A stretch of 20,056 nucleotides of DNA from positions 1-20,056 of the forward strand of contig CAZHYN010000018.1 in the NCBI GenBank assembly GCA_964536865.1, in the 5' to 3' direction. A program made the position numbers and the translations under genes. This stretch comes from an uncultured Planctomycetia bacterium (lineage in GTDB: Bacteria; Omnitrophota; Gorgyraeia; Duberdicusellales; 4484-171). Shown here in pieces: positions 1-19,342 of the stretch (position 1 is its first letter; each line of letters starts with the position of its first letter). The notes below the pieces were generated by a model, which was given only the letters and a program-made list of their open reading frames with translations, ran no database searches and was not told the origin of the DNA.

Positions 1-33
1 ATGATAGTAGATATTAAATTGTTAAACTATTTT

Positions 34-77
34 GGACCCAACAAAAAAAGACTCCGACTTTGTCGGAGGTTGGGTTC
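34..77. repeat. Structured repeat unit U1 (compound stem-loop)
   Basis: 34-77 is identical to 164-207 except loop base 61 (T) versus 191 (C). Fold: outer stem GGACCCAAC (34-42) / GTTGGGTTC (69-77, one G-T pair), unpaired AAAAAAAGA (43-51), inner hairpin CTCCGAC (52-58) TTT GTCGGAG (62-68) abutting the outer 3' strand. On the minus strand the inner hairpin is followed by TCTTTTTTTG, which looks like an intrinsic terminator. Alternative closing pair: GGACCC 34-39 / GGGTCC 88-93. Confidence 0.8.
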
Positions 78-163
78 GAGTCTTAGCGGGTCCAGATATC
101 TTTGATAATTAAGATAAATCTAGTCAATTTTAACTTGCTCTTTATCAAAGATAAAGCAATCTC

Positions 164-232
164 GGACCCAACAAAAAAAGACTCCGACTTCGTCGGAGGT
201 TGGGTTCAAATCCCTCCCCCCTCCGTATGTTT
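164..232. repeat. Structured repeat unit U2 (compound stem-loop plus 26-nt C-rich box)
   Basis: Outer stem 164-172 / 199-207, bulge AAAAAAAGA 173-181, inner hairpin CTCCGAC 182-188, loop TTC, GTCGGAG 192-198. It is followed by CAAATCCCTCCCCCCTCCGTATGTTT (207-232), which recurs exactly at 336-361. Alternative pairing: CGGAGG 194-199 with CCTCCG 220-225. Confidence 0.8.
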
Positions 233-292
233 ATATATTGGAAAGAGAAGAGTCTTATAGAGAGAGGAGATGATTTATCTGGTAGCAATTTT

Positions 293-361
293 GGATGCGT
301 TATAAAAACTTCGCTTTATCAGCGAAGAACGCATACAAATCCCTCCCCCCTCCGTATGTTT
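293..361. repeat. Structured repeat unit U3 (same fold, both stems replaced, plus 26-nt C-rich box)
   Basis: Starts with GGA like U1/U2. Outer stem ATGCGTT 295-301 / AACGCAT 328-334, bulge ATAAAAA 302-308, inner hairpin CTTCGCT 309-315, loop TTATC, AGCGAAG 321-327 flush with the outer 3' strand. The distance from the leading GGA to the CAAATCCC box is 43 nt in both U2 (164 to 207) and U3 (293 to 336). Box 336-361 is identical to 207-232. Confidence 0.75.
302..327 (-). terminator. Candidate intrinsic terminator for the permease gene (inner hairpin of U3 read on minus strand)
   Basis: On the minus strand, CTTCGCT-GATAA-AGCGAAG (7-bp stem) is followed immediately by TTTTTAT. It is the first such structure, about 90 nt downstream of the permease stop (418). 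U2 (173-198) and U1 (43-68) give two more hairpin + T7 structures further downstream on the same strand. Confidence 0.5.
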
Positions 362-417
362 TTTCATTTTTAAATGAAATAAAAATTCTTACTCGACTGC
401 GATTACTTTTCCCACTA

Positions 418-1725
418 TCAAGTAAGAAAGATATATCTGAGGATAAAAAGGATAGAGAAGATATAGATTAAAGGAGGGACTTCTTTGATTTTCCCTGCTA
501 CTAACTTTAAGAAAGTGTAAGCTATAAAACCAAATGATATCCCTTCGGTAATACTAAAAGTTAGAGGCATAATTATTATAGTAAGAAATGCAGGAAAGCT
601 TTCGGTAAAATTATCCCAATCAATCTTTCTTATATTCTTAAGCATAAATGAGCCTACAACGATTAAAGCAGGAGCAATGATAGGATAAGTAACCAGCTTT
701 CCTACTTTAATAGGTTTAGAGACTACTTCTATTAAGGGATAGAATACCAAAGATAGAAGGAATAAAGAAGCAGTTACCAGATTAGCCAATCCTGTTCTTG
801 CTCCTTCAGCAATTCCTGTAGAACTTTCAACGTAGCTAGTAATAGTAGAAGTTCCTAGCAGGGTTCCCGAGACTGTACCTATAGCATCACTAAGTAACGC
901 TCCTTTAGCCCGAGGCAACTTACCTTCCTTTAAGAAACCAGCTTGCTCTCCTAATCCTACGAGGGTGCCTACCGTATCGAATAAGTCTAAGAAGAAGAAG
1001 ATAAATATTACTCCTAACATATTCCAAGTCAATGCACCTCTAATATCTAATTTGAAAAAGGTGGGGGAGAGAGAAGGAATTTTCCCTACTATTTTAGGAG
1101 ATTCTACCAGCCCCATACTCACGGCAAGAAAAATATTGAGTACTATTCCTATAAGAATTGCTCCTTTTACTTTTTTGGTAAGAAGTAAGGCAATCACTGT
1201 TACTCCTGATATGGAGAGTAAGACAGGGGGGGAGGAAAGTTTTCCCAGACCTATTAATGTTCCTGATTTTCCCACCACAATTCCTGCCCACTGCAGCCCA
1301 ATAAAGGTAATGAGAAGCCCTATTCCTACCGCAATTCCATGTTTTAAGGAAGAAGGGATAGCGTTGACCAGTTTTTCTCTTAACCCCCAAAAGGAAACTA
1401 TCAAAAAAAATATCCCTGCAATAAAATTTGCTCCTAAAGCTACTTGCCAGCTTACCCCTAAAGCAAGACATACCCCGTATACAAAGTAGAAATTATGTCC
1501 CATTGCTGGAGCTAAGGCTATGGGATAGTTAGCTAAGAGGGCCATAAAGATCATAGCAATACTTGAAGCTACACAGGTTGCTACCATTACTGCTCCTTTA
1601 TCCATTCCCACAGTAGAGAGGATGAGAGGTTGGACAAAGATGATATAAGACATTGTAACAAAGGTAGTAATACCTCCTATTATTTCTTGTCTTATAGAGG
1701 TTTTCTGTGATAGAAAATTTATCAT
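418..1725 (-). CDS. NCS2-family purine (adenine/guanine/hypoxanthine) permease, AzgA/PbuG-like
   Basis: A 435-aa polytopic membrane ORF. The N-terminal IRQEIIGGITTFVTMSYIIFVQPLIL and ANYPIALAPAMGHNFYF match the remembered COG2252 signature. The overlapping ORFs 965-1489(+) and 1094-1471(-) are shadows. Confidence 0.85.
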   Translation of the reverse strand: MINFLSQKTSIRQEIIGGITTFVTMSYIIFVQPLILSTVGMDKGAVMVATCVASSIAMIFMALLANYPIALAPAMGHNFYFVYGVCLALGVSWQVALGANFIAGIFFLIVSFWGLREKLVNAIPSSLKHGIAVGIGLLITFIGLQWAGIVVGKSGTLIGLGKLSSPPVLLSISGVTVIALLLTKKVKGAILIGIVLNIFLAVSMGLVESPKIVGKIPSLSPTFFKLDIRGALTWNMLGVIFIFFFLDLFDTVGTLVGLGEQAGFLKEGKLPRAKGALLSDAIGTVSGTLLGTSTITSYVESSTGIAEGARTGLANLVTASLFLLSLVFYPLIEVVSKPIKVGKLVTYPIIAPALIVVGSFMLKNIRKIDWDNFTESFPAFLTIIIMPLTFSITEGISFGFIAYTFLKLVAGKIKEVPPLIYIFSILFILRYIFLT

Positions 1726-1739
1726 TTCTCTTTAATAAA

Positions 1740-1768
1740 ATTCTATCAACTTTGAGAAGATTTTGCAA
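1740..1768 (-). promoter_or_regulatory. Sigma70-like promoter candidate for the permease
   Basis: The minus strand reads TTGCAA (1768-1763), 17-nt spacer, TAGAAT (1745-1740). The leader to ATG 1725 would be very short, which lowers confidence. Confidence 0.35.
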
Positions 1769-1797
1769 ATAGAAGAATGAAAACGTGAGGTTTTTTC

Positions 1798-1826
1798 TTG
1801 TAAGAGAAGAATAGATGTGTTAGAAT
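1798..1826 (+). promoter_or_regulatory. Sigma70-like promoter candidate for tadA
   Basis: TTGTAA (1798-1803), 17-nt spacer, TAGAAT (1821-1826), about 50 nt upstream of ATG 1876. Confidence 0.45.
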
Positions 1827-1875
1827 TCTTTAGCTATTAGATTGTCTTTCAATTTAAGGTTCACTCCATAATTTT

Positions 1876-2355
1876 ATGAGAAATATTCACTCCAAATTCA
1901 TGCGAGAGGCACTAAAACAGGCAAAGATAGGTTCCGATAATGGCGAAATTCCTATAGGAGCGGTTATTGTATATCAAAATAAAATCATTGCTAAGAGCCA
2001 TAATCAGGTAGAATTACTTAAAGACCCTACTGCTCACGCTGAGATTCTTGCTATTACGCAAGCTACCAACTATTTAAGATGTAAATGGTTGAAGGAATGC
2101 ACTCTCTATGTAACGGTAGAACCATGCCTTATGTGTGCTGCGGCTTTAGTCTTTTCTCGGATTGGTAGAGTTATTTTTGGAGCTTACGATTCTAAAGGAG
2201 GAGGAGTTATTTCCAAAGTAGATATTAATAGACTAAAATTGAATTATAAGATAAAATTTAAAGGGGGTATTTTAGAAGAAGAGTGTGCTAAGGTTATAAA
2301 GGATTTTTTTCAGAAAAAAAGAGAGTTAGTTAAAACTTCTAATAAAAAGATGTAG
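1876..2355 (+). CDS. tadA: tRNA-specific adenosine-34 deaminase
   Basis: 159 aa. Zinc-deaminase motifs HAE (TAHAEILAI) and PCxxC (VEPCLMCAAAL). Size and N-terminus (FMREALKQA) are typical of TadA. Confidence 0.9.
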   Translation: MRNIHSKFMREALKQAKIGSDNGEIPIGAVIVYQNKIIAKSHNQVELLKDPTAHAEILAITQATNYLRCKWLKECTLYVTVEPCLMCAAALVFSRIGRVIFGAYDSKGGGVISKVDINRLKLNYKIKFKGGILEEECAKVIKDFFQKKRELVKTSNKKM

Positions 2356-2395
2356 CCGAGTTATTTTTTCCTAAGGTGGATCCGCCTCTGGCGGA

Positions 2396-2413
2396 AAGGC
2401 AGCCGCCTGCTAA
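2396..2413 (+). repeat. 18-nt exact duplicate of an internal tRNA-Ser segment (D-stem 3' strand to end of anticodon loop)
   Basis: AAGGCAGCCGCCTGCTAA at 2396-2413 equals 2485-2502 inside the tRNA. GCCGAG at 2355-2360 also matches tRNA 2472-2477. Together they resemble a 5' half of the tRNA with the D-loop replaced by 35 nt. Confidence 0.8.
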
Positions 2414-2462
2414 AAGTTTTTAAAAAGCTTTTTGAAAAATAGAGAGGAGTTAAGGCTATTTT

Positions 2463-2557
2463 GGAGAGGTGGCCGAGCTGGTTTAAGGCAGCCGCCTGCT
2501 AAGCGGTTAGCCCGCCAAAAAGCGGGCTCCCGGGTTCGAATCCCGGCCTCTCCGCCA
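2463..2557 (+). tRNA. tRNA-Ser (anticodon GCT), type II with long variable arm, CCA encoded
   Basis: Acceptor GGAGAGG 2463-2469 / CCTCTCC 2547-2553. Anticodon stem 2491-2495 / 2503-2507 with loop CTGCTAA (anticodon 2498-2500). Variable arm AGCCCGC-CAAAAA-GCGGGCT (2509-2528). T arm CCGGG-TTCGAAT-CCCGG (2530-2546). Discriminator G2554, then CCA 2555-2557. Confidence 0.95.
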
Positions 2558-2587
2558 TTAGCTTATATGTTGTTCTCTTTAAATTTA

Positions 2588-2641
2588 CCCCCAACCACAG
2601 AAAGTCACCCCGCCCTTTCAAGGAAAGGGCGGGTTTCGGGG
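2588..2641. repeat. Structured repeat unit U5 (looser member of the same fold)
   Basis: Outer pairing CCCC(C)AA 2588-2594 with TT(C)GGGG 2635-2641 (one C-C mismatch). 5' bulge CCACAGAAAGTCAC (2595-2608). Inner 11-bp hairpin CCCGCCCTTTC 2609-2619, loop AAG, GAAAGGGCGGG 2623-2633. The 5' flank CCCAAC.A.A.AAAG resembles U1/U2. Confidence 0.5.
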
Positions 2642-2646
2642 TTTAC
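2609..2646 (+). terminator. Candidate intrinsic terminator after tRNA-Ser
   Basis: An 11-bp GC-rich hairpin (2609-2633) followed by TTTCGGGGTTT. The T-tract is interrupted, so this is a moderate call. Confidence 0.5.
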
Positions 2647-2677
2647 TAAAGTTAATTTTAAAGAAAAGGCAGTTTCG

Positions 2678-2740
2678 GGCCTAACAATGAAAGTCCCGAG
2701 CTTATCGGGGTTGGGTTTAAATCCTGTCTCTTCCTCATAA
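2678..2740. repeat. Structured repeat unit U4 (same fold, pyrimidine-rich tail)
   Basis: Outer stem CCTAAC 2680-2685 / GTTGGG 2710-2715 (the C-to-T change keeps a T-G pair). 9-nt bulge AATGAAAGT 2686-2694, the same length as in U1/U2. Inner hairpin CCCGA 2695-2699, loop GCTTA, TCGGG 2705-2709, flush with the outer 3' strand. Then GGTTGGGTTTAAATCC (15/16 identical to U2 198-213) and a C/T-rich tail ending 2 nt before the EamA ORF. Confidence 0.7.
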
Positions 2741-2742
2741 AT

Positions 2743-3177
2743 TTGAGTGAGAATGTTATGTTTGCTTATCTCTTTATAGTAATGACTGTATTTTTTTGGG
2801 GGTTAGCTACTATTTTTGATAAGCTCGCTCTAAGAGATGCTTCTCCTTTTGGTGGTCTTTTAATAAGAACGTTGGTTGTAGTTTTGGGGTTAATTTTAAT
2901 ATTTCCTTTCTTTAAATATAAATATCCTTCCTCTTTAAAGCTCAATTCTTCTTCACTTTTATTTTTTATTCTTTCAGGAGTATGTGCAGGATTATTGGGG
3001 ATGTTCACTTATTATTCAGCGTTAAAAAGACTTCCTGCCTCGATAGTAGTTCCTCTATGTTCGGTTTATCCTTTAATCTCAGCCCTTTTAGCAACAGCAG
3101 TTCTAAAAGAAGAGCTTAACATTTTAAGACTTACAGGAGTAGTTTTAATTATATTGGGGGTATGGCTGGTGAAGTAA
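2743..3177 (+). CDS. EamA/DMT-superfamily single-domain membrane transporter
   Basis: A 144-aa ORF with about 4-5 hydrophobic helices, matching an EamA-like half-size protein. The start is ambiguous: TTG 2743 or in-frame ATG 2758 (MFAYLF...), which I consider more likely. Confidence 0.6.
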   Translation: MSENVMFAYLFIVMTVFFWGLATIFDKLALRDASPFGGLLIRTLVVVLGLILIFPFFKYKYPSSLKLNSSSLLFFILSGVCAGLLGMFTYYSALKRLPASIVVPLCSVYPLISALLATAVLKEELNILRLTGVVLIILGVWLVK

Positions 3178-16305: not shown

Positions 16306-17103
16306 GTGCGTTTCCCTTTTCTTAAGAAACGGAAGTGTAAGGTTTTTATTCTAGGAGACGTAGATACGGGTAAGACTTACCTGGCATTTAGTTTGGTAAA
16401 AGAAGCCTTAAAATATCATAGGAAAGTAGGGCTCCTCTGTACCGACTTGGGACAATCTGCAGTGGGTCCACCGGGATGTGTGAGTTTTAAAGTTTTCACT
16501 AAAGAAGATAAGATATCCTCCTCCTTGAGTTTAATAGTCCCTGAGATAATAGATTTTGTAGGTTCTTTTTCTCCTGCGGGAATAGAAATTTTTCATTTAG
16601 CTTCTACCAAGGTAGTGTTAGAGAAGGCTCTTAAACAAGTAGAATTTGTTATAATAAATACTACAGGATACATTCGTCCTATAGCGGCTCAGGCTCTTAA
16701 ACTCCTTAAGATTAGACTGATAAATCCAGAAGTGATTATTGCTATTGCTAAAGGGAGGGAGTTAAGCTATATTCTGGATAATTTTTCTAAGAGTTCTATC
16801 ACTTTATATACTCTGAAGAAATCAGTAAGGGTAAGAAAGAGGTCGAGAAAAGAGAGAGCTGAATTTCGATTAAAACTTTTTAGAGCATATTTTAAAAAAA
16901 CATACTCTTTGTCTTTTAAGGTTAACTCTTCTTATTTTTCTCCTAATATGGTGATAGGTCTCTTAGATAGAGAGCTTACTACTTTAACCTTAGGATTAGT
17001 TAGAAGGAAATTCAATTCCCGCATAGAGATTATTGCTCCTCCATTTAGAGGTAAAGTAAGTTATCTTAGGCCTTCTTCTATAACTATTCCTGAGCCCTTA
17101 TGA
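16306..17103 (+). CDS. Clp1/Grc3-family P-loop protein (putative polynucleotide 5'-hydroxyl kinase)
   Basis: 265 aa. P-loop ILGDVDTGKT, then LLCTDLGQSAVGPPG (the DxDxGQ...PG clasp pattern of Clp1 kinases), VGSFSP, INTTGY, and a basic RKERAEFRLKLFRAYF segment. GTG start. Confidence 0.6.
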   Translation: MRFPFLKKRKCKVFILGDVDTGKTYLAFSLVKEALKYHRKVGLLCTDLGQSAVGPPGCVSFKVFTKEDKISSSLSLIVPEIIDFVGSFSPAGIEIFHLASTKVVLEKALKQVEFVIINTTGYIRPIAAQALKLLKIRLINPEVIIAIAKGRELSYILDNFSKSSITLYTLKKSVRVRKRSRKERAEFRLKLFRAYFKKTYSLSFKVNSSYFSPNMVIGLLDRELTTLTLGLVRRKFNSRIEIIAPPFRGKVSYLRPSSITIPEPL

Positions 17104-18665
17104 TGAAGAAAACGGATAATTTTTCTAATTTGAAAGAGATGTTAGGAAAGAGTGCCTCTAAGTATAGAAAAAGGATTGCTTTAGTATTTGGCAGAAGGAA
17201 AGTCAGCTACTCTCAGGTTTTAGATACTTCTCAAAGAGTAGCTCAAGCTCTCTCAAAATTAGGGATAGGTAAGTCAGATAAAGTATGTATCTGGTTACCT
17301 AATGTACCTGAATTTGTATACTCTTTCTTTGGAATCATTATAGCAGGAGGAATAGTTTGCCCCATAAATAGTATGTTTAAGAGAGAAGAAGCAAAGTTTG
17401 TGATTGAGGATTCTCGAGCAAAGGTCCTTATTACCTCTATAGATAAATTAGAAGATGCTGAGAATATCCTCTGGCGCCTGGACTCATTAAAATTTATTAT
17501 CTGTGTTTCTTCTTCTAAACACCAGAGTAATATCTTGGATTTTTATAGTTTGGTAAATACTAGTAAGCCGCTAAAGAAGGAAGTTGCTATTCATCATGAG
17601 GATATAGCTGAGATCATATATACTTCAGGTACTACAGGAAGACCCAAGGGGGCACTCCTTACGCACAAAAATTTGCTGTCTAATATTAGAGGATGTAGGG
17701 AAGTAATTAAAATAACGAAGAGAGATTGTTTCATCTGCATTCTTCCTTTATTTCACTCTTTTGCTTCTACGGTATGTATGCTTCTTCCTTTATCTTGTGG
17801 AGCAAAAGTAGTAATCATGCGGGCGATAAGGCCTTTTAAAAGAGTAATAAGAGCAATCTTTAAAAATAGAGTAACGATATTTGTAGGTATCCCTTCTGTG
17901 TTTAATATCTTGAGTGAATTGAAAATTCCTAAATTTAAACTCTTCTTAAGTTACCTTTTGAATCCGGTAAGACTTTGTATTTCTGGAGCAGCATCTCTAC
18001 CTTCTCATGTTTTAAAAAAATTTGAGAGTAAATTCAAAATTCCTCTCTTGGAAGGCTACGGTCTTACCGAGGCTTCACCGGTAGTTTCTCTTAACCCCTC
18101 AAAAGGAAAAAGAATACCTGGATCTGTGGGATTACCTTTACCTTGGGTCCAAGTTAAAGTTATAGATAGAGAAGGTAGACCTCTTCCTCCTAATCAAATA
18201 GGTGAGCTTTTGATAAAAGGGGATAATATAATGAAAGGTTATTATAAACTAGAGGAAGCTACCAAGGAAGTTTTAAAGGAAGGGTGGCTTCATACTGGGG
18301 ATTTAGCTAAGCTTGATGATGAAGGATATATTTATATCATGGGTAGAATAAAAGAGATGATAAATGTAAGGGGACTTAATGTCTATCCTAAGGAGATTGA
18401 AGACCTTCTTTATAAACATCCTAAGGTAAAGGAAGTAGCTTGCGTAGGTGTTCCTCATCCTCACCGGGGAGAAGTTCCTTTAGTATTTATAGTGAAAAGA
18501 GAAAAAGACCTCTCTACTCAAGAAATTTTAGAGTATCTAAGAGCTAATTTAGCTTCTTATAAAGTTCCTTTAAAAGTGATTTTCAAGGATTCTTTTCCTA
18601 AAAATCCTTCAGGTAAAATCTTAAAAAGAGAATTACAGAAAGAGGTAATTGATATTTTTAGATGA
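17100..18665 (+). CDS. AMP-forming acyl-CoA synthetase (long-chain fatty-acid--CoA ligase-like, ANL superfamily)
   Basis: 521 aa. YTSGTTGRPKG, EGYGLTE, GWLHTGD, and C-terminal PSGKILKR. ATGA overlap with the upstream gene. Confidence 0.88.
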   Translation: MMKKTDNFSNLKEMLGKSASKYRKRIALVFGRRKVSYSQVLDTSQRVAQALSKLGIGKSDKVCIWLPNVPEFVYSFFGIIIAGGIVCPINSMFKREEAKFVIEDSRAKVLITSIDKLEDAENILWRLDSLKFIICVSSSKHQSNILDFYSLVNTSKPLKKEVAIHHEDIAEIIYTSGTTGRPKGALLTHKNLLSNIRGCREVIKITKRDCFICILPLFHSFASTVCMLLPLSCGAKVVIMRAIRPFKRVIRAIFKNRVTIFVGIPSVFNILSELKIPKFKLFLSYLLNPVRLCISGAASLPSHVLKKFESKFKIPLLEGYGLTEASPVVSLNPSKGKRIPGSVGLPLPWVQVKVIDREGRPLPPNQIGELLIKGDNIMKGYYKLEEATKEVLKEGWLHTGDLAKLDDEGYIYIMGRIKEMINVRGLNVYPKEIEDLLYKHPKVKEVACVGVPHPHRGEVPLVFIVKREKDLSTQEILEYLRANLASYKVPLKVIFKDSFPKNPSGKILKRELQKEVIDIFR

Positions 18666-19342
18666 AGAAACCTTTTGAGATTATCTTCCAAGACACTCAC
18701 CTATTGGTTGTAAACAAGATAGCTAAGCTTCTAATTCAGCCTACTCCCAAGAGAGAAAAAGTCACTTTAACTACTCTATTGCAGGAGGAACTGAGAACAA
18801 AGGTTATTCCTTGTCATAGACTTGATAGGGAGACTACAGGTTTAATTATTTATGCTAAGAGTAAATACATACAGAGAATTATCGCTGAGGAGTTTCGTAG
18901 GCGCAAGGTAGAGAAACGGTATATTGCTTTTGTGAAGGGAAGATTATCTAAAAAAAAGGGTCTTTTAAAGGGTCATATTCTAGATAAAGAGGCAAAGATC
19001 TTTGGGGAAAAGTCAAAGGAAGCAATTACTATCTATAAGGTGATGAAGAGTTCCGATTACTTTACGGTGGTAGAGCTAAAGCCTATTACGGGGAGAACTA
19101 ATCAATTGAGAATTCAACTCGCCCATATAGGACATCCTATATTAGGAGAGGATAAGTATGCTTTCAGGCGTGATTTCTATATTTTAGGGAGAAAGGTAAA
19201 TTTTAAGCGATTGGCTCTACATGCATTTTTTATTAGTCTCATCCATCCTATAATGAGAAGAAGAATTAGTTTCAAAATCAATTTACCTCAAGATATGGAA
19301 GAATTTCTTAAAAAGTATTCTTTTTACCCCTTAAAAGTATAA
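18662..19342 (+). CDS. RluA-family pseudouridine synthase (no S4 domain)
   Basis: 226 aa. Catalytic-Asp motif HRLDRETTGL, TGRTNQLR, and LALHAF. ATGA overlap with the upstream gene. Confidence 0.85.
   Translation: MKKPFEIIFQDTHLLVVNKIAKLLIQPTPKREKVTLTTLLQEELRTKVIPCHRLDRETTGLIIYAKSKYIQRIIAEEFRRRKVEKRYIAFVKGRLSKKKGLLKGHILDKEAKIFGEKSKEAITIYKVMKSSDYFTVVELKPITGRTNQLRIQLAHIGHPILGEDKYAFRRDFYILGRKVNFKRLALHAFFISLIHPIMRRRISFKINLPQDMEEFLKKYSFYPLKV

Follow-up and report, generated by a model that had tools for sequence, protein, structure and literature searches.

Remodelled tRNA-Ser copies as the probable origin of a tandem compound-hairpin array facing a permease gene in uncultured Omnitrophota

The window analyzed here is a stretch of 20,056 nucleotides (contig CAZHYN010000018.1 of assembly GCA_964536865.1) from an uncultured bacterium of the phylum Omnitrophota, and its left end carries a tandem array of three units with a period of approximately 130 bp, namely, U1 (34–94), U2 (164–225), and U3 (293–354), all on the plus strand. 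Judged from comparison of sequences, the units are very probably remodelled tandem copies of a tRNA-Ser gene together with its trailer of approximately 45–68 nt, situated in the 3′ trailer of tRNA-Ser(GGA). The joint reading, in which these tRNA-Ser-derived units serve as minus-strand terminators for a convergent permease gene, is slightly favored. The original prediction had regarded the array as an independent RNA or repeat family that it did not recognize, and this claim was overturned, as the conserved box of the units is the 3′ end of tRNA-Ser(GGA). The units are a recent, clade-specific product of tRNA-Ser gene duplication rather than an ancient RNA or a new RNA class, and the array amounts to a peculiarity confined to one uncultured Omnitrophota clade.

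tRNA-Ser origin and distribution of the units

The conserved box, CAAATCCCTCCCCCCTCCG, corresponded to the T-loop, the 3′ strand of the T-stem, and the 3′ strand of the acceptor stem of tRNA-Ser(GGA), and the outer-stem strand GTTGGG corresponded to the 5′ strand of the T-stem of tRNA-Ser. The tail of U2 (208–225, AAATCCCTCCCCCCTCCG) was a copy of the same T-loop, T-stem, and acceptor segments, and the tail of U3 (337–354) likewise carried a 3′ end of tRNA-Ser(GGA) type. The tRNA 3′ end GGGTTCAAATCCCTCCCCCTCCG was matched by the tails of U2, U3, unit N1 of a sister lineage, and the second unit of a tRNA-Ser(CGA) locus, while decayed versions of it formed the tails of U0, a fourth copy to the left of U1, and of units A and B of another sister lineage. 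When the units were aligned with tRNA-Ser(CGA), the alignment beat 300 of 300 shuffles (z 4.1–5.2), with the signal coming mostly from the T-loop onward. Moreover, the tRNA trailer and the inter-unit spacer were the same sequence (77–96% identity), and a 91-nt tRNA plus approximately 45 nt of trailer gives approximately 136 nt, compared with an observed period of 130–131 nt.

The gene order at related loci was determined directly in two sister lineages. In lineage B (L113, with a permease 94% identical to that of the window), tRNA-Ser(GGA) was followed by a 68-nt spacer, unit A, a spacer, unit B, 20 nt, the U3 orthologue, and the convergent permease gene. In lineage N (L127, GCA_021162445.1), which was assembled through, the order was tRNA-Ser(GGA), spacer, a single U-type unit (N1), a counterpart of the U2–U3 spacer spY, the U3 orthologue, and the permease gene; the U3 core of this lineage was identical to that of the window. 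In both lineages (L026/L113 and L127), the tRNA gene sat one 68-nt spacer upstream of the array. The window lineage, W, reads U0, spacer, U1, spX, U2, spY, U3, and permease. Its source contig (ENA, European Nucleotide Archive, ERZ27248455 k141_548903) runs 86 nt further to the left than the window and ends inside U0, which is also of the U type. By synteny with the two sister lineages, tRNA-Ser(GGA) probably lies just beyond the left edge of the window. Locus L026, in the orientation of the window, begins within a class II tRNA (...CACGACTGGAAATCGTG, variable arm, GAGGGTTCAAATCCCTCCCCCTCCG), and ARAGORN identified the gene as tRNA-Ser(GGA) in L108, L109, and L113, which are more complete copies, as well as in L127.

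The same arrangement was found beyond the GGA gene. At the CGA locus (L128/L080), tRNA-Ser(CGA) was followed by the standard spacer, a U-type unit, a spacer, a second U-type unit, a trailer, and a co-directional CPBP gene. The last unit ended with an exact copy of the tRNA 3′ end and trailer, and the match between the repeated spacer and the native trailer extended as far as the initial bases of the CPBP start codon region. Accordingly, this match points to plain tandem duplication of the tRNA and its trailer. Altogether, members of the family followed all three tRNA-Ser genes found (GGA, CGA, and GCU), always on the tRNA strand. The absence of further copies had been named beforehand as grounds for discarding the original prediction, and such copies were present in the sister lineages and at the other tRNA-Ser genes; the five copies that it had counted in the window were likewise borne out, the other two being C4 (2588–2641) and C5 (2677–2737).

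The distribution of the family was narrow. The pattern CCCAAC...GTTGGGTTYRARTC was searched over 185,579 species genomes and gave 104 stretches, of which two were genuine, both from Candidatus Omnitrophota bacterium B7_G16, the rest being due to chance; one of the two is the syntenic locus L026. A metagenome scan for the pattern gave two genuine loci out of six, and three scans of viral contigs gave no family match. Relatives whose permease or TadA was 66–77% identical had the same tRNA-Ser genes without units. A covariance model (CM) of the family, R1, which is blind to U3-type units, found no members in relatives at this level of protein identity. In these relatives, tRNA-Ser(GGA) was followed by a plain T-run and then by the PolB and DJ-1 genes, and tRNA-Ser(GCU) abutted the next gene. 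In the relatives' loci L118–L123, genes for a family B DNA polymerase and a DJ-1/PfpI protein lay between tRNA-Ser(GGA) and the permease gene, and both were missing in the array-bearing clade.

Copy number also varied, with one, two, or at least three U-type copies across genomes: a single A/B hybrid unit in the lineage B metagenome contig L109, two in L113, and at least three in the source contig. Several assemblies broke inside or beside arrays, and the units thereby break metagenome assemblies at tRNA-Ser genes. Such an array would grow, shrink, and turn mosaic through unequal recombination and short-tract conversion between the blocks running from the T-loop to the 3′ end, which would account for the varying copy number, the identical cores beside unrelated tails or spacers, and the contig breaks. 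The T-loop and 3′ end would thus serve as a recombination handle in a remodelled tRNA-Ser array. Within each copy, the inner hairpin would stand where a class II tRNA has its long variable arm, and the former anticodon-arm region would have been rebuilt into the 5′ arm GGACCCAAC, complementary to the 5′ strand of the T-stem, followed by an A-run. If so, the array displays the stepwise rebuilding of a tRNA duplicate, with the variable arm becoming a perfect hairpin and the anticodon arm becoming an outer-stem strand and an A-run.

The copies did not behave as functional tRNAs. ARAGORN, under default and relaxed bacterial settings, called tRNA-Ser(GCU) alone in the window and no unit, and the Rfam family RF00005 matched the real tRNAs alone, with no unit at E values up to 10. 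Similarly, no Rfam family matched any unit at E values up to 10. Complementarity of the acceptor type between the 5′ and 3′ ends (GGACCC/GGGTCC) was present in U1 alone and absent from U0, U2, U3, and the units of lineages N and B, and the hairpin loops were 3–5 nt long without a U33 context, compared with 7 nt for an anticodon loop. U1 does fold like a tRNA lacking the D-arm; functional D-armless tRNAs were rejected because neither ARAGORN nor Rfam called them, the other copies lacked acceptor complementarity, and the anticodon loop was absent. A tmRNA or a split tRNA was also rejected, as ARAGORN gave no support.

Fold of the units and maintenance of the stems

Repeat finding and folding upheld the description of three units spaced 130 and 129 nt apart and sharing a compound hairpin. 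Repeat D1 (24–82 vs. 154–212, 88% identity, spacing 130) covered the 5′ core common to U1 and U2, and repeat D8 (207–239 vs. 336–368, 91% identity, spacing 129) covered the 3′ box common to U2 and U3. Tandem Repeats Finder did not report the array at 34–354, because no two periods match over their full length. As had been stated, the 44-nt cores of U1 (34–77) and U2 (164–207) differed at a single loop base (T vs. C), and the distance from the leading GGA to the box was exactly 43 nt in both U2 (164 to 207) and U3 (293 to 336). The proposal that selection had kept this spacing did not hold; the period of approximately 130 nt and the 43-nt offset were inherited from tandem duplication, and the lineage B orthologue of U3 sits only 86 nt after the preceding unit. 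The junction AGCAAT(C/T)T(C/T)GGA, said to be shared by all units, failed for U1, which reads AAACTATTTTGGA, while a junction of the form ...ATTTT|GGA was conserved.

The compound hairpin was the predicted plus-strand fold in every unit (z −3.0 to −4.0), with 0–2 of 200 shuffled sequences folding equally well. U1 had a minimum free energy of −26 kcal/mol (z −4.0) and scored 80.8 bits with the CM. By folding, its core comprised an outer stem (34–42/69–77), an A-rich bulge (43–51), and an inner hairpin (52–68). U2, with a U-type core at 164–207, scored 82.8 bits. In both, the outer stem was 9 bp, the A-rich 5′ bulge 9 nt, and the inner hairpin 7 bp, flush with the 3′ arm. In U3 (core 293–336), the outer stem (295–301/330–336) was 7 bp, the bulge (302–308) 7 nt, and the inner stem 7 bp within the hairpin at 309–327, so that the 7-bp stem and 7-nt bulge originally assigned to all units apply to U3 and not to U1 and U2. 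The bulges were strongly A-rich, with T nearly absent. The tail of U1 (78–94, GAGTCTTAGCGGGTCCA), which can close a tRNA-like three-way junction with GGACCC, was specific to lineage W and was seen in no other lineage compared.

In the case of the spacers, the 3′ end of the 69-nt U0–U1 spacer (1–33) shared 81–86% identity with the lineage N and B spacers. The U2–U3 spacer spY (226–292) was 88% identical to the N1–U3 spacer of lineage N and 62% identical to the standard spacer (z 3.4–3.9), which marks it as a diverged homologue. The U1–U2 spacer spX (95–163) had no significant similarity to any other spacer (z ≤ 2.3); it contains a perfect 11-bp inverted repeat at 98–108 (ATCTTTGATAA) and 142–152 (TTATCAAAGAT). 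All of these spacers are on the plus strand. The idea that U2 carries a 5′ flank of the U3 type was considered and dropped, since the flanks of all units were equally alike.

The stems were maintained in most members. In structural register, U-type units and U3 had seven of 16 pairs identical, eight changed on both sides and still Watson–Crick, and one edge pair changed on one side, with no disruptive change among the 14 core pairs. The claim that both stems had been wholly replaced under a constant fold was therefore correct in its eight double, pair-preserving changes and incorrect as to the extent, as the seven identical pairs mark the sequences as homologous, not unrelated. Among seven distinct U-type and C5 sequences, 98.2% of the alignment cells were paired compared with 93.8% after shuffling, with no shuffle out of 500 as high as the real alignment, and four pairs had changed on both sides compared with 0.8 expected by shuffling (1 of 500). 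When the partners were slid by one column, pairing fell to 54–57%. A flip from G-C to C-G accounted for the sole two substitutions in the core of N1, and C5 of lineage B showed double changes from C-G to U-A; its core differed from that of the window C5 at 13 of 50 positions, with almost identical flanks.

Minus-strand terminator likeness and rival explanations

The minus strand carried a terminator-like site in each unit: 42–68 in U1 (CTCCGACAAAGTCGGAG then TCTTTTTTTG, hairpin 68–52), 172–198 in U2 (CTCCGACGAAGTCGGAG then TCTTTTTTTG, hairpin 198–182), and 299–327 in U3 (CTTCGCTGATAAAGCGAAG then TTTTTATAAC, hairpin 327–309). These sites face the 3′ end of the convergent xanthine/uracil (NCS2) permease gene (418–1725, minus strand, PF00860), and the site in U3 was the first G+C-rich hairpin with a T-run past its stop codon. 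In a terminator scan, seven sites were found at positions 1–3000 compared with 3.0 expected, with the minus-strand sites of U1, U2, U3, and C5 ranking at the top; the remaining 17 kb gave 11 sites compared with 12.6 expected, which is the chance level. A G+C-rich stem-loop followed by a T-run, as in intrinsic terminators, was present on the minus strand of the same four units, and a position downstream of a same-strand gene held for the permease but not for C5 or the units of the CGA locus. Both the perfect G+C-rich hairpin and the adjacent A-run, which is the minus-strand T-run, were lacking in the parent tRNAs.

On this evidence, the chance that the units terminate the permease transcript is judged to be approximately even. 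U3, backed by U2, U1, and U0, would end convergent permease transcription and spare the tRNA gene from antisense transcription. As the T-run lies on the opposite strand, read-through from the tRNA on the plus strand would not be stopped. The units share with Rho-independent terminators a G+C-rich 7-bp stem, a loop of 3–5 nt, and a T-run of 5–9 within 2 nt, past a convergent gene. They differ in being enclosed by an outer helix that has its 3′ arm past the T-run, in being tRNA-derived and stacked three to four times, and in occurring also without a converging gene.

Several findings weigh against the joint reading. The tRNA-Ser(GGA) gene itself was unseen in the window lineage, where the contig ends before reaching it. 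The units of the CGA and GCU loci have no gene converging on them; thus, a gene-terminator role cannot be general. The T-run of C4 was poor. The outer stem was kept through five double changes, and its 3′ arm lies past the minus-strand T-run; it is unexplained by terminator function, in agreement with the earlier remark that a minus-strand terminator accounts for neither the outer stem nor the box. Non-Watson–Crick cells, read on the plus strand, comprised 12 G·U and one A·C, corresponding to approximately eight to nine events to one (one-sided p ~0.02), and this excess points to the plus strand as the strand needing to pair. Finally, the U3 orthologue of lineage B, which lies next to the permease gene, had largely lost its fold (−4.2 kcal/mol, weak hairpin), and it shows that part of the unit family is decaying.

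Accordingly, a plus-strand RNA role in the tRNA trailer is a serious rival, suggested by the pairing pattern and held to be rather unlikely. The units would act as plus-strand RNA, either within the tRNA-Ser 3′ trailer or starting at UUUU|GGA, and their terminator likeness would be secondary; as candidate functions, they could help to process or stabilize the tRNA precursor or the downstream mRNA, or could be a small RNA resembling rtT or a 3′ external transcribed spacer (3′ETS). Such a role is consistent with the shared tRNA orientation at all three loci, the preservation of both helices by double changes, the conserved ...ATTTT|GGA junction, and the wobble asymmetry, as the one-sided changes in the U-type/C5 alignment all give plus-strand G·U. 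U-type units and C5 also folded more stably on the plus strand (C5, −14.8 vs. −7.5 kcal/mol on the minus strand), and two of the three loci lie in co-directional gene strings, where a plus-strand terminator would be harmful and a plain hairpin tolerated. However, the family is restricted to one narrow clade, its copy number ranges from one to at least three, the U3 orthologue of lineage B lacks the fold, no Rfam family matches, the bias of the bulge toward A over T is left unexplained, and the wobble asymmetry is based on approximately nine events. If this role is true, the units represent a tRNA-derived RNA family bound to one amino-acid specificity.

A bolder form of the same idea, which we consider unlikely, is that a thermophile-associated Omnitrophota clade turned duplicated tRNA-Ser genes into a new structured RNA family, under selection on the plus strand at all three tRNA-Ser genes. 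This family may consist of compound hairpins formed from the variable arm and the T-stem and starting at the tRNA-like UUUU|GGA, with possible roles as a processing and stability module of the RNase P/Z type for tRNA-embedded operons or as a decoy related to tRNA-Ser and SerRS. U1 would then be a near-complete mini tRNA-Ser, with an acceptor stem (G1-C72, G2-C71, A3-U70), a hairpin resembling the variable arm, and a T-arm.

Neutral decay is rated as distinctly unlikely. It takes the units as decaying tRNA-Ser pseudogene repeats whose stems were made or repaired by template switching (quasi-palindrome correction) and gene conversion. Template-switch mutation in short perfect hairpins can produce perfect stems and multi-base, compensatory-looking changes in one step without selection (PMC8794818). 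Fresh reverse-complement insertions were present nearby in truncated copies of tRNA-Ser(GCU), such as the 30-nt D-loop insertion in the copy at 2352–2414, which consists of inverted copies of neighboring tRNA segments. The 5′ outer arm comes close to a reverse complement of the T-stem strand, and the identical cores beside unrelated tails and spacers indicate conversion; the decay in lineage B, the variable copy number, and the narrow distribution also fit. Neutral decay predicts neither a G·U-only pattern on one strand, nor an A-run abutting the hairpin in every member, nor the persistence of both unit types (at least one U-type and one U3-type) in each of the three lineages, and the absence of disruptive changes in the 14 core pairs between U-type units and U3 argues against it. 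For the scoring of compensatory changes, the array offers a small system in which selection on RNA structure can be told apart from artefacts of template switching and gene conversion.

Very improbable is the explanation that site-specific recombination at tRNA-Ser genes left the units behind as footprints or miniature cassettes. An integrase with a T-loop crossover would have connected an element arm, the U core, with the 3′ end of the host tRNA in an attR-type junction, and tandem accretion followed by deletion would have left gene-less modules of approximately 130 bp. Integrases use the T-loop, anticodon loop, or 3′ end of tRNA genes, with Ser among the favored targets (PMC1635311), and such footprints would suit the junction between core and local tail in the T-loop at three tRNA-Ser genes (GCU having a different 3′ sequence), the repeated 23-nt block from the T-loop to the 3′ end, a classical identity block, the truncated 5′ copies upstream of tRNA-Ser(GCU) that end in the anticodon loop, and the gain of the family at all three loci within one clade. 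However, neither the window nor the related loci yielded a gene for an integrase or for any other mobile-element protein, the three viral-contig scans were without a match, an element between the repeats would span only approximately 114 bp, and the spacer corresponds to the trailer of the tRNA itself, with the first CPBP bases included, which fits plain tandem duplication.

Three further candidates were rejected. A plus-strand terminator for the tRNA was excluded by the lack of a U-tract after the compound hairpin. An independent promoter in each spacer was also excluded, as a consensus scan found none in the spacers; a −10 element resembling TGnTAAACT precedes U1 and was not conserved. Integron attC sites were rejected because the core consensus RYYYAAC...GTTRRRY fitted only two of six unit types, with no IntI and no cassettes. 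The consensus fitted the U-type units (ACCCAAC/GTTGGGT) and the window C5 (GCCTAAC/GTTGGGT) but not C5 of lineage B (AGCCAAT/ATTGGGT), U3, or C4; the matching segment is the T-stem, no open reading frames (ORFs) occur in the 68-nt spacers, and no gap separates the inner hairpin from the 3′ arm.

Known parallels and neighboring features

Among known systems, the E. coli tyrT/rtT repeats (rtT RNA/rttR, tpr ORF) come closest. In NC_000913.3, three 178-bp periods with 95% identity were confirmed downstream of tyrV, the last of which overlaps the tyrV 3′ end. One of these repeat units gives the small RNA RttR (PMC3318445), whose function is still unclear (bioRxiv 10.1101/2024.07.17.603846). Both systems have tandem repeats directly 3′ of a same-strand tRNA, which was seen directly in L127, L113, and L128 and is probable by synteny in the window, and in both, every period holds a copy of the 3′-terminal segment of the tRNA. 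The Omnitrophota array differs in its period (130 vs. 178 bp), in the tRNA (Ser vs. Tyr), and in having no sequence or Rfam relation to the E. coli repeats (no RtT match at E values up to 10). The segment copied in Omnitrophota begins at the T-loop and extends to the 3′ end, the remainder being a remodelled tRNA body with a compound hairpin and an opposite-strand T-run, and the family occurs at three tRNA-Ser genes rather than in one operon. The array is a second, independent example of a long-unexplained arrangement, in a distant uncultured phylum.

An Arg-rich ORF also runs through the repeat in E. coli, and an ORF through U1 (1–108, MIVDIKLLNYFGPNKKRLRLCRRLGSSLSGSRYL*) is Arg-rich and resembles the tpr ORF of the rtT repeats. 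The frame is not conserved among the Omnitrophota units, and a protein-coding role for the 34-aa Arg-rich peptide was rejected, as the A-run of 7, 8, 9, or 11 nt shifts the frame among copies.

Like the att repeats of integrative elements, the array directly repeats the tRNA 3′ segment, starting in the T-loop, and its copies lie downstream of an intact tRNA and share its orientation (general rule in PMC1635311). The array differs from att repeats in that no element or integrase was found in the window or related loci, the repeat distance is 130 bp, and the spacer is the tRNA's own trailer.

Some 3′ external transcribed spacers of tRNAs are functional, for example, 3′ETS-leuZ. The array resembles it as a tRNA trailer that might act as RNA after processing, whereas the structures are unrelated.

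At the GCU locus, all features lie on the plus strand. The tRNA-Ser(GCU) gene (2463–2557, ARAGORN) is preceded by a 3′-truncated copy of itself (2352–2414), extending from the 5′ end to the anticodon loop. The D-loop insertion of this copy forms two 6-bp hairpins (TCCACC-TAA-GGTGGA and TCCGCC-TCT-GGCGGA), which are reverse complements of adjacent tRNA segments, and alternative pairings are possible. One truncated copy was found in the window, two in lineage B (L113), and at least two identical ones in lineage N (L127, 5094–5328, where the contig breaks). The truncated copy belongs to the same tRNA-Ser duplication phenomenon as the units.

Downstream of the gene, C4 is a compound hairpin with an 11-bp G+C-rich inner stem; in its lineage B counterpart, the outer stem is a perfect 10 bp (CCCGAACCAC/GTGGTTCGGG) and the inner stem 12 bp. 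C5, which has an orthologue in lineage B, was recovered by the CM with 59.1 bits (E 2e-14) and comprises a 9-bp outer stem that includes four G·U pairs, a bulge rich in A, an inner hairpin of 5 bp, and a tail similar to the tRNA-Ser(GCU) 3′ end. Both lie between tRNA-Ser(GCU) and an EamA-like gene and were absent in the relatives L130 and L133, in which the next gene directly adjoins the tRNA.

Elsewhere in the window, a Clp1-type P-loop protein (16306–17103; PF16575, polynucleotide kinase-like) is encoded beside an AMP-binding enzyme (17100–18665) and a pseudouridine synthase (18662–19342). This trio is unusual for a bacterium and may be related to RNA repair.

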